Shown here in pieces: positions 3,013 to 13,744 of a stretch of DNA of 46,272 nt; the stretch's first letter is position 1; every line of letters begins with the position of its first letter. A program made the position numbers and the translations under genes. The stretch spans positions 346,459 through 392,730 of the forward strand of contig CAYSBJ010000002.1 of the NCBI GenBank assembly GCA_964429275.1, in the 5' to 3' direction. The notes beneath the pieces are model-generated. The model worked only from the letters and a program-made list of their open reading frames with translations, did no database searches and was not told where the DNA came from. The stretch is from an uncultured Pseudomonadota bacterium (GTDB lineage: Bacteria > Babelota > Babeliae > Babelales > JAUPTZ01).

Positions 3013-6000
3013 CTAGTCTTCTTCAGTATTGTCAAACGGAAGCTCATCAATCGGTTCATCTATTCCCCGCTCTGTATTTTGTGTAACGCGACCAGCAACA
3101 ACCGATATGAAGCGGTCAGCGGAGATATAGACGCGAGCATAGTCATTTAGTTCGTCAAGCGTAAGATCGTATACGTACCGGAGCGCCTTGTCATAATAAT
3201 CGTACCCAATGCCCAAGATCTCGATGTTGGCAAACAATGAGGCAAGGGAGCGCACATCTGCCGCTGCATCAATCATTTCTTTGCTGTACATCTGACGAGC
3301 AGCTGCAAGTTCATCGGCCAAAAACGCCTCTTTGGTGACGGTAGCAAGCATGTTCAAAATCGCTGTCTGCGCGAAGGAAAGATTCTCCGGACTCACAATA
3401 GCACACACATAATCGTACCCGTGTTCCTGATGAATATCTGCTCCCCAGGCCCCAGAAGCGGTGTAGAAGAGACCGGTTCGTTCTCGCAATTCAAATAAAC
3501 GAGAGCCAAGTGAATTAAAACAAATATGGCTGAGCAAATCTAACGTAATATGTGCCGGTTCGTAGAGGGAGACCGAAGAAGTACGGCCAAATGCCAATAC
3601 GACTTGGTCTCGCAGCATTGGCACCACTACTTGCAATGTTGCCGGCGGTTGCTGTTCTGGATAGACCGGAGCCACGTGATGGCCTGCTGGCCAATCAGCA
3701 GTCATTTGCAGTGCTAATTGCTCCACAAACGCTGGTTCTACATCCCCTGCAACCGAAAGAACCACCTGTGATGGGCGAATATAATGCTCATGCAATCGGC
3801 TAATTTCGGCAAGTGTCAGGTTTTGGAGATACTGTATTGCGTCATCAAACGACCACCCGTACGGATGTTTTGGATACAGAAGCTGCTTCAATGTACGCAA
3901 TGCCATCTGTTTAGCTGAATCTTTTTTCTGCTGGTAAGAATGAATATAAATGTCACGAATCTTTTCAAAAGCTTGCTGCGTAAAGGCCGGATGACGGAGT
4001 ACGGTAAAGCCATGCGCAAAAACTCCAGCAAAACTGCTGGTTCCCACAAGCAAACTCATGCCACGACCGTTGTAGGCATACTGCGCACCATTCAAATCAA
4101 AAAATTCAACAATCTGTTGCTTTGTAAGGCCTTTACTTCCTTCAAGAAGCAATGACATCATTACATCAACCCCGACTCCTTCAAGAGCGCGAGCAATATA
4201 GGCTGAATCTTTGAATACCAGAGCGACGCTCACTAACGGCAAGCTGCGATCGGTATGAGAAATAACCGTTAAATCATTCCCCATTTGCCGCTCAATACGG
4301 GTTGGTTGGGGAAAGGTAAACATAAGCGGTTTTGCGGCTGGCAATGTATGCACATACGAAGCTTCGGCAAGCGGTTCAGTCCGCTTATGGCGCTCCAAGA
4401 GATACGCATAATACTCCTCCTCTTTGGCCTGTTCTTGTCCCCAAATTTCCCGCGCTGATTGCGGCAATGGGCAGAGCAAAATGGAGTGCATGTCGCGTGG
4501 TGTTAACCACTGCGCAGCAAATGCTTGTAGCTCTACAGGGGTAATTTTTGCATATTCGTTTGCTTCCTCAAAGAACGCAAGTTCATCGCGGGTCACAAAG
4601 TAAGAGCTAAGCCATTGGTAGACAAAATCGTGAAGGTTGTGCAGTGCCAACATGTGCTGACGTTGGCGATTCTTAACCATTTTGTACAACTCAACGTCAC
4701 TAAACCCGTCGTTGATAACCGTTTGCATTTGTTCTATGACTGCCGCTTTACACTCTTCAACTTTGCCTTGCTTCGGTTCAATAGAAATCAAAAAGAGCCC
4801 TGCATCAACCATTTGTTCTGCCGACACACGCACAGAAGAAGCAATTTGCTTTTCATCAACCAACAACCGATATAATCGGCTATCAAGACCACCACCGAGA
4901 ATATACTCAACCGCACTTGGCACTAAAAAGTTGCCTGCGTTTAAGCCAGGAATACGCCAATACAACCCCAACTGCTCATCATGTATCTCTTTGTACATGG
5001 TGGAAGAAGTCGCGGTTAAATTGTTATGAAGTGGAATAAAGGCTGGTGTGTGATCACTTGCGTTGCACACAATAGAAGCAAATGCGGCTTTGGCTTTGCT
5101 CAGTGCATCTTCAATATCAATGTCACCAACAATACACAATACCGCGCGGCTTGGGTGATAATACTTATCATAAAACGCTTTGAGGCGCGCACCAGAAAGA
5201 TCGGCCAAATCTTCTTTGTAGCCAATGATAGGGAAATGATATGGATGGTTAGCCGGGAAAAGTGTCGTAAAGGCATGTTCCAGCATCATGTGGAAATGGC
5301 TATCGCGATACATACGCAATTCTTGAATAACCGCTTTAACTTCTGAAGCCAAATGCTGATCATCAAAACGTGCATTTTGCATACAATCAGCAAGCACTGG
5401 CAGGAAATGTTCCCAATTTTGTGAATCGGCTTCAAAGAAGTAGCTTGTCATGTCGTTGCTGGTAAAAGCATTAAAGTCCGCGCCGTATTTACGCGCAATC
5501 GCATCAATATCCCCTTCGGTTAAAAGAGAGGTACCTTTGAAAATCATATGCTCCAACAAATGGGCAAGACCACGTTCACCGGCAGATTCAATTGCGGAGC
5601 CTACATCGTACCCAATTTGTACGAGAACTTTTGGCGCATTGCGCTGCTGACAGATAAGCACGGTAAGGCCATTATCAAGCACTACTTTTTTGATTTTTTC
5701 AGTCGCCACAGACACCACATCGTGAGCCGGCAAGTCGAAGAATTTGTTATTTTTTGCAACTTCCGCTGTGGTCGGAATGGAAGAGCTATATACAGCACGG
5801 TCTTCAAGGCCAAATTGGCGTTGGAAATAAAGCCAAGCAAGATAGAGAAGAATGCCGACTAAGGCCACCGCAATAAGCCCGCCGATAAGGCCAATAATCC
5901 CCCCAACAAGACTCAAAATCATACTCACCACACTAAAGAGGCTGGTAATAATACCGGCCGTCGCAGTGACCACGCTTTTTAGCATATCTAGTAGGCTCGT

Positions 6001-6021
6001 TACGATAGCAGTACTACTCAT
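3013..6021 (-). CDS. M16 family zinc protease (two-module PqqL/pitrilysin-like) with hydrophobic N-terminal extension
   Basis: GLAHLLEHMIFKGT (HxxEH), FNAFTS, HPY motifs in both halves, SRLFELRERTGLFY. Confidence 0.92.
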   Translation of the reverse strand: MSSTAIVTSLLDMLKSVVTATAGIITSLFSVVSMILSLVGGIIGLIGGLIAVALVGILLYLAWLYFQRQFGLEDRAVYSSSIPTTAEVAKNNKFFDLPAHDVVSVATEKIKKVVLDNGLTVLICQQRNAPKVLVQIGYDVGSAIESAGERGLAHLLEHMIFKGTSLLTEGDIDAIARKYGADFNAFTSNDMTSYFFEADSQNWEHFLPVLADCMQNARFDDQHLASEVKAVIQELRMYRDSHFHMMLEHAFTTLFPANHPYHFPIIGYKEDLADLSGARLKAFYDKYYHPSRAVLCIVGDIDIEDALSKAKAAFASIVCNASDHTPAFIPLHNNLTATSSTMYKEIHDEQLGLYWRIPGLNAGNFLVPSAVEYILGGGLDSRLYRLLVDEKQIASSVRVSAEQMVDAGLFLISIEPKQGKVEECKAAVIEQMQTVINDGFSDVELYKMVKNRQRQHMLALHNLHDFVYQWLSSYFVTRDELAFFEEANEYAKITPVELQAFAAQWLTPRDMHSILLCPLPQSAREIWGQEQAKEEEYYAYLLERHKRTEPLAEASYVHTLPAAKPLMFTFPQPTRIERQMGNDLTVISHTDRSLPLVSVALVFKDSAYIARALEGVGVDVMMSLLLEGSKGLTKQQIVEFFDLNGAQYAYNGRGMSLLVGTSSFAGVFAHGFTVLRHPAFTQQAFEKIRDIYIHSYQQKKDSAKQMALRTLKQLLYPKHPYGWSFDDAIQYLQNLTLAEISRLHEHYIRPSQVVLSVAGDVEPAFVEQLALQMTADWPAGHHVAPVYPEQQPPATLQVVVPMLRDQVVLAFGRTSSVSLYEPAHITLDLLSHICFNSLGSRLFELRERTGLFYTASGAWGADIHQEHGYDYVCAIVSPENLSFAQTAILNMLATVTKEAFLADELAAARQMYSKEMIDAAADVRSLASLFANIEILGIGYDYYDKALRYVYDLTLDELNDYARVYISADRFISVVAGRVTQNTERGIDEPIDELPFDNTEED

Positions 6022-6099
6022 GTTAACCTTTCTTCTCTGTATAATTCACAAGGTCGCACACTGTAACACAAAAGAAAGATTGGTTCTATGATATAACAA

Positions 6100-6199
6100 G
6101 AAAAAGCCCCACAGCTTTTAAGGGCCACAGAGCTTTTTCTCGTTTGATAAGTCCAACAACTTAGGGATGGAAATGCGTGACCGACCACCGGTCAACGCG
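6100..6199 (-). ncRNA. Candidate small RNA (or attenuator leader of the M16 protease gene)
   Basis: Upstream promoter; hairpin GCGTTGACCG/CGGTCACGC, single-stranded TTTCCATCCC, hairpin TAAGT/ACTTA, then a GU-containing hairpin with a U-tract. Confidence 0.5.
6101..6138 (-). terminator. Rho-independent terminator, minus strand
   Basis: Minus strand AAAAAGCTCTGTGGC-loop-GCTGTGGGGCTTTTT pairs fully only with G-U wobbles, which fixes the strand. Confidence 0.65.
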
Positions 6200-6204
6200 A
6201 AGTA

Positions 6205-6232
6205 ATCGTACCACGAAAAGAAGAGTTGTCAA
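6205..6232 (-). promoter_or_regulatory. Strong sigma70 promoter
   Basis: TTGACA-16 nt-TACGAT with TGn extended -10 and upstream A-tracts. Confidence 0.65.
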
Positions 6233-6521
6233 ACTTTTTTTATGGTTTTTTTGCAAAACAATAAAGTGATAGTAAAAAGACTCTAAAAGAGCGCTGCATG
6301 CCCAAATAACGGGAGCAAAAAAGAGTGCCGCTTCATCCCATCTCTAACATATCGCAAAAAGACAAAGCTCAAATTTCGTCGCATTTTTATGCACCTTTTC
6401 TAATCACACGATCTGGAGCTTTTTTTGGTAGCAGTCGTTTTTTTGATAAATTGTTTTCGATTGTTCCTTTTTCTCAAAAGTTCATGCTACTTTGACCAAA
6501 ATAATCTATCGGAGTATGTGC

Positions 6522-7808
6522 ATGACCCTCATTTATATCATCCTCTTCCTCCTCCCTGTTGGCATGGCACACGGGGTAACCACACTCAATTTGCCCGCCG
6601 CTCAAATAGCCGGTGTTACTGAACGCCCTTCACTTGAAGCTAGTCGTCAGTCCATTATCGTGAGCCAGAAAGATGAACAGCGACTTTTTGGAAAACTTTT
6701 CCCTCAAATTAGTGGCAGCGCCAATGCTCTGCTCGCCACCACATCCGTATCTGATGTCTCCTCCAGCAACGAAACCGCCTGCACACTCTCACTGCAGGGC
6801 TCACAAATTCTGTTTAATCTTCCTGGAAAAATACAAGGACAAATTGCGGCGCTCACCACACAGCGCTCCACGTACCAATACCAAGCAAGCTCACACGAGG
6901 TTCGCTACACCGTGAGTACACATTTTCTACAAGCATGGCTGCTACAAACAAAAGCGCCGCTCATCGCCGCCCTTGCAACCTACACCGATGAACTAGAAAA
7001 AAATAATAATAACTTGCGCCAACTCAACAACATCAACGCCATAACCTGGTCTGCCACCGCCGCAACCATTGCACAAAATCGGGCAACCATTGCTGGATAC
7101 CCACTGGCAGCAGCCTCCTCCCTTCAGATGTTACGCCAAAGTATGGGAGCAGGATATGTTCATACATCAGAGATTACCGAACTTTCCTATGACCTGACTC
7201 ACCCACTACCAGAGCGCAAAGAAATACAAAAGTATATCGACCTTGCTTACGCCAATCGCCCAGAACTCAAAGACAAAGATCTTGCGATGCAACAGCAAGA
7301 GCTCACCGCAAAGTCATATCGTGCTAATTACCTTCCCACTATCAGCATGCAAGGGAATTTAAGCACAACACCAACAGGCGCAAACGTTATGAAGGGACAA
7401 AGCGCTTCCATCGGTGTATCGCTACAATGGAACTTCTTTGACGGCACTCAATCTGTACGCTCAGCCGAAATTGCTGACGCCAATAAATTGCGTGTGTCAT
7501 TTGAAAAACAAGAGCTAAAAAACAACATTGCAACAGCCATTATAAACACCTACAACACACTTTGCACAAATGAAAAAATGGTAGAAGTCGCCCGCGCACG
7601 AGTCGCGGCACAAGAAGCGCTTTTTTCCCAAACAACTGCCGCTTTCGCCGCAGGAACTGTTGACGCACTCGTACTGGCAAAAGATGCGTACGATTATGCA
7701 GCAGCGCTCCATGATCTGCGTGCTCAACAAGTTACACTGCACACCAACTGGCAAACACTCGCCTGGCAGTGCGGTTACCCAACCTCAGGAGTTTTTAATG
7801 AATCGTAA
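6522..7808 (+). CDS. TolC family outer-membrane efflux protein
   Basis: Signal peptide; two OEP repeats (FPQISGSA, AYANRPEL..YLPTISMQG..LQWNFFDG); GGAG RBS before ATG 6522. Confidence 0.85.
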   Translation: MTLIYIILFLLPVGMAHGVTTLNLPAAQIAGVTERPSLEASRQSIIVSQKDEQRLFGKLFPQISGSANALLATTSVSDVSSSNETACTLSLQGSQILFNLPGKIQGQIAALTTQRSTYQYQASSHEVRYTVSTHFLQAWLLQTKAPLIAALATYTDELEKNNNNLRQLNNINAITWSATAATIAQNRATIAGYPLAAASSLQMLRQSMGAGYVHTSEITELSYDLTHPLPERKEIQKYIDLAYANRPELKDKDLAMQQQELTAKSYRANYLPTISMQGNLSTTPTGANVMKGQSASIGVSLQWNFFDGTQSVRSAEIADANKLRVSFEKQELKNNIATAIINTYNTLCTNEKMVEVARARVAAQEALFSQTTAAFAAGTVDALVLAKDAYDYAAALHDLRAQQVTLHTNWQTLAWQCGYPTSGVFNES

Positions 7809-12874: not shown

Positions 12875-13744
12875 ATGCATATGTCACGTAAAAGCCGACT
12901 TACTATAACGTTTTTTGCAGTAATTTCCACTTTCAGTCCAATGCTCGATGCGGGCAACCCTATTATTGGGGGGTACCTTGTTCCTGCCCCACAAGAGGTT
13001 ATACAACCATTAAACCTGCCTACCCCGGTAGTCGGTGGGATTAAAATTACTTATTCCGGATATTCCGACTACACGAATCGTGATGGTTACTTTTCCTTTC
13101 CCAAACATCATACCGATCCGGAAATCCGCCTCATTGTCTGCGCTGAGACTGACTATGACTTGCTGAAAGAAACCGTATCGAAAGTCAAAATAAACTCTAA
13201 AGCCCAAAACCCGGCGATTGCGGTCTACCGCATTACCAAACAAAAAGAAACTTTTTCCGAAGACGTAAATGCACAAGGAATCGGAAAAAAAGATCAAACG
13301 CAGAAGGCCGCTCCCGAAACCCCCGGAGATGCAGACAAAGCAAAAGATGCGAACAAAGATGCTGACCCGAGCAAAAAAACCGACACGCCAAACAACAATG
13401 AAGTATGGTGTTACACAATTAAAGCAGAAGGGAACCTAGCCCCGACTGATGGTATACGATCAACTGATGTCATAATCCACTGTGATCCAGCAATGATATA
13501 TCTAAAAGATAAGTCATACTACTACGCAAGCACGGAGGAAACCTCTCACTTCATCCTGCCAACCGAGTGCATCTTTCTGCTTAAAACACCTGCAGCTCCA
13601 GATTTAGATCGGGCCGATATCATGACCGAATCAATTGAGTCTGAAATCCAGGTCGAAAATGTAGAAAATAAGAGTAGTGAAACTGATAGCATGGGCAACC
13701 CGCTGCCAGGTGTTGTTCGTTCAGCACGTTCAAATACTCAGTAA
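12875..13744 (+). CDS. Hypothetical secreted protein
   Basis: Signal peptide; TNRDGYFSF beta-sandwich-like motif; charged low-complexity loop; start 12875 or 12881. Confidence 0.7.
   Translation: MHMSRKSRLTITFFAVISTFSPMLDAGNPIIGGYLVPAPQEVIQPLNLPTPVVGGIKITYSGYSDYTNRDGYFSFPKHHTDPEIRLIVCAETDYDLLKETVSKVKINSKAQNPAIAVYRITKQKETFSEDVNAQGIGKKDQTQKAAPETPGDADKAKDANKDADPSKKTDTPNNNEVWCYTIKAEGNLAPTDGIRSTDVIIHCDPAMIYLKDKSYYYASTEETSHFILPTECIFLLKTPAAPDLDRADIMTESIESEIQVENVENKSSETDSMGNPLPGVVRSARSNTQ

Follow-up and report, generated by a model that had tools for sequence, protein, structure and literature searches.

According to the excerpts of the literature consulted here, the cia-dependent small RNAs (csRNAs) of streptococci carry an anti-Shine-Dalgarno (anti-SD) sequence plus CAU, or an anti-GUG sequence, between two stem-loops (PMC3091779), with target pairing shown for comC (PMC4507080), while RsaE uses an unpaired UCCC without Hfq (PMC2790875); in bacteria lacking Hfq, as such excerpts also state, KhpA/B-type proteins are reported as RNA binders. 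A search of literature listings found no paper describing Dependentiae small RNAs, and the main text of bioRxiv 10.64898/2026.10.21.760802 contains 0 mentions of the phylum. Here, we report a conserved and, judging from its sequence, likely transcribed gene for a non-coding RNA of ~100 bases in a few related Dependentiae. This C-rich sRNA candidate is real, has a narrow distribution and is apparently undescribed. We hold with considerable confidence that a functional RNA gene lies at 6198-6098, and consider the chances about even that its product acts in trans against translation initiation.

The window, i.e. the whole stretch of 46,272 nucleotides that was analysed, belongs to genome G000, which is compared below with its nearest congener, G004, and with a more distant congener, G003. 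The features of the locus are as follows, in window coordinates.

3013..6021, minus strand: M16 peptidase of 1002 aa, the downstream neighbour
6060..6088, minus strand: distinct promoter-like site assigned to the protease (TG-extended TAGAAY-17-TACAGT), with a function suggested by conservation (outside the promoter scan list)
6098..6198, minus strand: predicted small RNA of ~101 nt, with the start placed 6 nt past the -10 box and both ends predicted
6098..6138, minus strand: terminator-like hairpin with A-tract and U-tract, from folding; both changes in G004 keep or extend its pairing
6148..6163, minus strand: weak middle hairpin, from folding; G003 has another weak hairpin with UCCC in the loop
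6161..6175, minus strand: C/U-rich linker CAU-UUCC-AUCCCU-AA, the predicted anti-start-codon and anti-SD seed
6175..6198, minus strand: 5' hairpin, identical in G004 and replaced in G003 by an unalignable hairpin
6173..6205, plus strand: antisense frame of 10 codons behind AGGGA-N5-ATG, a rival reading of the motif
6205..6213, minus strand: extended -10 box TG-n-TACGAT, TACGAT itself at 6210-6205 (TG-n-TACCAT in G003)
6227..6232, minus strand: -35 box of the predicted promoter, TTGACA (TGGACA in G004, TAGACA in G003)
6317..6368, minus strand: decayed hairpin-terminator remnant with an intact counterpart in G004
6492..7808, plus strand: outer-membrane efflux (TolC-type) gene, the divergent neighbour and first gene of an efflux operon

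The preliminary description of this DNA had proposed a minus-strand promoter, a 5' hairpin, an exposed linker followed by a small hairpin, and an intrinsic terminator, with no credible ORF. The promoter is present at 6232-6205, with a TG extension and a spacer of 16 nt between TTGACA and TACGAT; as a sigma-70-type promoter it scores 10/12, the best among the 4 promoter-like sites of the region 5400-7000 (shuffles would give 2.4). In a scan of 372 G000 intergenic regions, promoter-plus-terminator units numbered 6, versus 0.7 per dinucleotide shuffle (20 shuffles), and the highest promoter score of the scan was that of the present element, equalled in 0/20 shuffles. The same scan returned another promoter-hairpin-terminator unit of ~134 nt at G000:C1:205,533-206,077 (+). 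Both the 5' hairpin (6198-6175) and the terminator hairpin (6138-6098) are found in the sequence as described. The latter is absent from the list of a terminator scan of the window, probably because its U-tract pairs with its A-tract; flanked by these two tracts, it is predicted to be active on both strands. Folding of the 101-nt strand gives -37.2 kcal/mol (z -3.5, with 0/200 shuffles as good), a stability that is mostly that of the terminator, since the 5' 65 nt folded alone do no better than shuffles (z -1.3); the G003 homologue folds at z -5.5.

The exposed linker and the small hairpin are likewise present, the former containing the stretch UUUCCAUCCCU (6173-6163, minus strand), but the hairpin is weak and, in the best fold, hides the last U of UCCCU. 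The linker is unpaired in G000 and G004; in G003, the best fold leaves UCCC in a loop and CAU (partly) paired. A possible loop-linker pseudoknot was seen by eye, in registers that differ. The absence of a credible ORF is a fair description, except that the opposite strand holds the 10-codon frame with an SD sequence and ATG at 6173-6205, discussed below. At the sequence level, the element has its own predicted promoter and intrinsic terminator and no ORF on its strand, as is looked for in a trans-acting C-rich sRNA. Against Rfam, the whole window gave 2 tRNAs only at the gathering score, the G000 element gave only 8 chance-level matches at E<=10, and the G003 and G004 loci gave no match at E<=1. 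No second copy of the element was found within G000.

Comparison with G004 reveals 98 identical bases out of 101 in the RNA. The protease gene, in comparison, has changed at 88 of 316 four-fold sites, and just upstream of the promoter 78 of 121 aligned columns, with gaps, are identical (Fisher p 4e-9). The third difference within the RNA, beside the two in the terminator, turns CAU into CAC. A recent exchange of the whole block could still account for the likeness of G000 and G004. In G003, which differs at 199 of 336 four-fold sites, the same position harbors TAGACA-16-TACCAT, a 5' hairpin, a linker and a terminator, with stems that cannot be aligned to those of G000. Nine of the 13 linker positions are kept, namely those of CAU and AUCCCU, with four bases between them; between promoter and terminator, CAU-N4-AUCCCU is all that G000 and G003 plainly have in common. 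The stand-alone regulatory RNA of the preliminary description is supported, on sequence grounds, by selection and by a layout kept through stem replacement. Independent sequence versions of the element number only two.

The element is absent from G002 and from metagenome locus L037, and the contigs of G001 and G005 end inside the gene. A promoter-plus-motif pattern retrieved 3 of the 261 genomes of the order, namely its 3 source genomes, against 11 control matches, and a looser pattern applied to 5 genomes of the family returned only the present RNA, an order-wide RNA described below and one further site in G003. A sequence model (R2) searched against 151 genomes gave strong matches only in its 3 seeds; of its 17 weak matches, 16 were checked and all 16 overlap long ORFs. 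The element was also absent, by eye, upstream of M16 genes in other families (22 loci, with many paralogues among them); a metagenome scan yielded 1 locus (L037), without the element, and a search of viral contigs yielded nothing. A look-up of sequencing runs listed no RNA data set containing the element, which has no bearing on its expression. Because the pattern and model searches return only the 3 source copies, the RNA appears confined, as far as searched, to part of one genus.

The surroundings of the element vary. Its upstream side is rearranged, and the element has remained next to the protease through shifts of upstream genes. In G003 (L211), the efflux operon is separated from the element by a cassette of four genes, of which three encode ABC-type binding proteins; its G000 counterpart is found elsewhere (C1:200,300-204,800) in a different order. 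In G000, G003 and G004, one and the same gene is followed by a small ORF of 38-60 aa with a hydrophobic N-terminus. At least 27 paralogous ABC-type substrate-binding genes were detected by tblastn in G000 (1.2 Mb). In G004 (L035), two further hairpin-terminator units without Rfam match lie between an ABC-binding-protein gene and the element, one of them common to G003 (76% over 59 nt), the other being the intact form of the 6317-6368 remnant. On the downstream side, a long stretch of ~100 hydrophobic, Gly-rich residues extends the N-terminus of the M16 peptidase in all three genomes. Its promoter-like site follows the terminator in G000, G003 and G004, with the -10 part also found in G002 and L037; having its own conserved site, the protease is probably independent of read-through.

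The reverse complement of CAU-N4-AUCCCU (i.e. of CAU-N5-UCCCU) is AGGGA-N5-AUG. In G000, AGGA and AGGG most often start at -10 before ATG (40 and 20 of 532 genes, respectively), and AGG[AG] stands at -10 in 92 of 778 genes with SD-guided starts, the small contigs C4-C8 being left out of these statistics. Since AGGA and AGGG peak at -10, the geometry of the motif is that of the modal spacing between Shine-Dalgarno and start in G000. The anti-SD seed of the preliminary description is thereby supported, and sharpened by an anti-start triplet at this spacing. (In snippets, C4-C8 appear to have a far higher G+C content than the three main contigs, possibly through contamination.) CAY-N5-TCCCT, a motif chosen post hoc, is contained in 0.06% of 23-mers drawn at random from G000 intergenic DNA, and TCCCT alone in 1.3%. 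The 16S tail of G000 itself is unassembled and that of 3 of the 5 relatives searched is canonical, so that UCCCU does not replicate the anti-SD of the ribosome; it pairs imperfectly with AAGGAG, the SD seen most often, and suits the subclass with AGGG, found in 78 of 532 upstream windows. Near matches to the complement of the G003 linker numbered 27 in G003 versus 11 for the control, and 14 of the 27 sit at the start of an ORF of at least 100 aa. The anti-AUG part is less sure than the UCCC part, because CAU is paired in G003 and altered in G004.

These features suggest a working model. Transcription of the minus strand from ~6198 would yield a stand-alone RNA of ~100 nt acting in trans, in which the 5' hairpin and the terminator may form a stabilising frame only, and would hence be free to be replaced. 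Pairing with an mRNA would be nucleated by UCCC. On mRNAs with AGGG-type SD sequences, the linker would likely cover ribosome-binding site and start codon alike, thus blocking their translation. Searches of G000 (98% complete) for Hfq, ProQ and CsrA gave no match and a KhpA/B-family KH protein is present; the RNA may therefore act without the first three, perhaps with a KhpA-type protein.

The target search was negative for orthologous pairs that co-vary with the seed, between the two seed versions compared. The G000 linker prefers start over coding regions in a manner that 7 of 60 of its own composition shuffles reach as strongly, and its best duplex with a start region (-15.2) is weaker than that with a coding region (-19.0), no start region standing out. 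AGGGAT-N4-RTG is in no excess, whether in G000 (17 sites versus 8-19 at other gaps) or in G003 (11 versus 7 for the control). Among the long G003 ORFs with this site, two also have it in G000; one was rejected, its site being at an internal Met, and the other is the gene at window position 12881, with AGGGATGCAYATG in both genomes, which pairs well with the G000 seed and only weakly with the seed of G003 itself. Although this failed as a co-varying pair, the gene at 12881 is the best remaining lead. Also set aside were a site before a nifU-like gene (13/14 nt in G000, not kept in G003 or G004), nrdB (GGGA-N5-ATG kept, but no co-variation) and the small ORFs after the ABC-binding-protein gene, which fail against shuffles; antitoxin-style pairing of type I with neighbouring small ORFs was equalled by 33, 237 and 123 of 300 shuffled targets. 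AGGGAT-N4-ATG starts both ribonucleotide reductase subunit genes (G000:C1:263,649 and 266,178).

The lack of a base-pairing target is among the points that lend some weight to a different function of the linker, in which UCCCU(AA) would be a protein-binding or shared-partner motif and the present RNA a lineage-specific sibling, decoy or modulator of a second, order-wide C-rich RNA. This single-copy RNA lies at G000:C1:80,415-80,560 (+), L078:1416-1562, with G000:C1:80,450-80,560 as a narrower interval. Its model (R1) finds it in 136 of the 151 genomes of the order, once each (118 of 124 near-complete ones), with 100% of 440 cells paired and 3 pairs changed on both sides; 21 exact 21-mer matches were found in genome contigs. 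It has no match in Rfam, and the G000 RNAs gave no 6S match, with SRP located elsewhere. By eye, its 5' UCCCU could pair with a 3' AGGGA in many copies. The two RNAs share a genome and the order promoter, hairpin, UCCCUAA, hairpin, terminator, with UCCCUAA ~35 nt from the predicted start and just before a hairpin in both; UCCCUAA recurs in 26 of the 30 order-wide loci examined (the other 4 fall outside the search expression), and the KhpA/B-family protein of G000 could be concerned. They differ in that the order-wide RNA, found nearly everywhere in the order, keeps fixed stems and has a C7 tract, while the present one occurs in 3 genomes with replaced stems. Moreover, R1 gives no score for the present element at E<=10 with filters off, the order-wide RNA lacks CAU at the corresponding position, and G003 reads UCCCUUG, so that only the pentamer, with its 1.3% background, is common. 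The two RNAs are predicted to bind each other hardly at all (-0.7 to -2.4 kcal/mol), and a sponge of the order-wide RNA was rejected, an 11-nt complement occurring in the G003 5' loop only, with a cofold gain of -1.3. With R1 silent on the present element and no mutual binding predicted, the kinship of the two RNAs is putative at best; we regard this reading as possible though rather doubtful, and the pentamer they share leaves room for a partner or target class in common.

Selection may alternatively act on DNA signals with no functional RNA at all, namely a read-through promoter for the protease and a two-way terminator that insulates a rearrangement hotspot, the linker match being due to ancestry or chance. 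This is unlikely, yet several observations fit. The 76-nt spacer past the terminator is identical between G000 and G004 at 75 of 76 positions, as strongly conserved as the RNA, which makes the constraint only partly specific to the RNA; shuffles fold as well as the 5' 65 nt; and G002 and L037 do without the element, at a locus with a rearranged upstream side. However, the 60 nt between promoter and terminator differ from G004 at 1 position only, G003 has a new 5' hairpin in the equivalent place, and a strong promoter facing an unswitchable terminator would produce a short RNA by default.

It is less likely still that the motif serves the opposite strand, as the SD and start codon of a peptide of 10-12 residues, the minus-strand RNA then being its antisense partner, following type I toxin-antitoxin logic. 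The frames of G000 (10 codons) and G003 (12 codons) do share a terminal TAA, the SD is at the modal spacing, and the change in G004 replaces ATG by GTG, which can likewise serve as a start codon. Nevertheless, this TAA belongs to the -10 flank of the RNA promoter, the two peptides cannot be aligned, and no synonymous change separates G000 from G004 within 6173-6205; the plus strand of G003 has no promoter-like site, and the sole candidate in G000 (6063-6092) precedes the two-way terminator hairpin. Finally, the attenuator or riboswitch for the downstream protease that the preliminary description offered as an option is not supported and seems very unlikely: in the 3 genomes carrying it, the element does lie 77 nt upstream of the protease start and on its strand, and stayed beside it while upstream genes moved, but forbidding the terminator costs 19.5-22.2 kcal/mol in 3/3 homologues with no alternative helix, the stems are not conserved, no Rfam riboswitch matches, and the promoter-like site of the protease is kept, also in G002 and L037, which lack the element.

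A stand-alone RNA with an anti-initiation linker thus remains our preferred reading. If it holds, a csRNA-like anti-start RNA under strong constraint in a 1.2-Mb genome without Hfq, ProQ or CsrA would show that the design has an independent origin in a reduced parasite lineage, and would offer a clean case of an sRNA with wholly replaced stems and a kept seed; the narrow range and the lack of a target limit the weight of this case. More speculative, and improbable in our view, is a UCCCU-based, Hfq-free system of C-rich RNAs in Dependentiae, with an order-wide core and young, fast-remodelled siblings, in which the present RNA, with its additional anti-AUG at the modal spacing, would be a general brake on AGGG ribosome-binding sites instead of having a single target; such a brake could, for example, shut down translation while these parasites are outside their host.

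Three described groups bear comparison, as far as the cited excerpts go. The preliminary description had pointed to alphaproteobacterial MmgR, which with SisA-D belongs to alphaR8 and has a C/U-rich single-stranded stretch after a hairpin and an intrinsic terminator (PMC12559287), as does the present RNA. The defining single-stranded 10-mer UUUCCUCCCU was given correctly there; it is, however, interrupted by an extra A in G000 and absent in G003, which has no UUUCC. Membership in MmgR/alphaR8 was rejected on these grounds, with no alphaR8 match in Rfam at E<=10 and no Hfq found in G000, MmgR being Hfq-associated. RsaE/RoxS, the UCCC-motif sRNAs of Staphylococcus aureus, share with the present RNA a 5' hairpin, an unpaired UCCC, a terminator and an Hfq-independent setting (PMC2790875), and differ from it in having several motifs instead of one; the present RNA also has a narrow distribution and no Rfam match. 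The streptococcal csRNAs are similar in size, in their two flanking stem-loops and in the anti-SD plus CAU held between them (PMC3091779, PMC4507080); unlike these, the present RNA is single-copy, uses UCCCU as its anti-SD, belongs to another phylum and has no Rfam match. Most likely, it resembles the anti-initiation sRNAs of the csRNA and RsaE types in its working while being a member of none of these groups.
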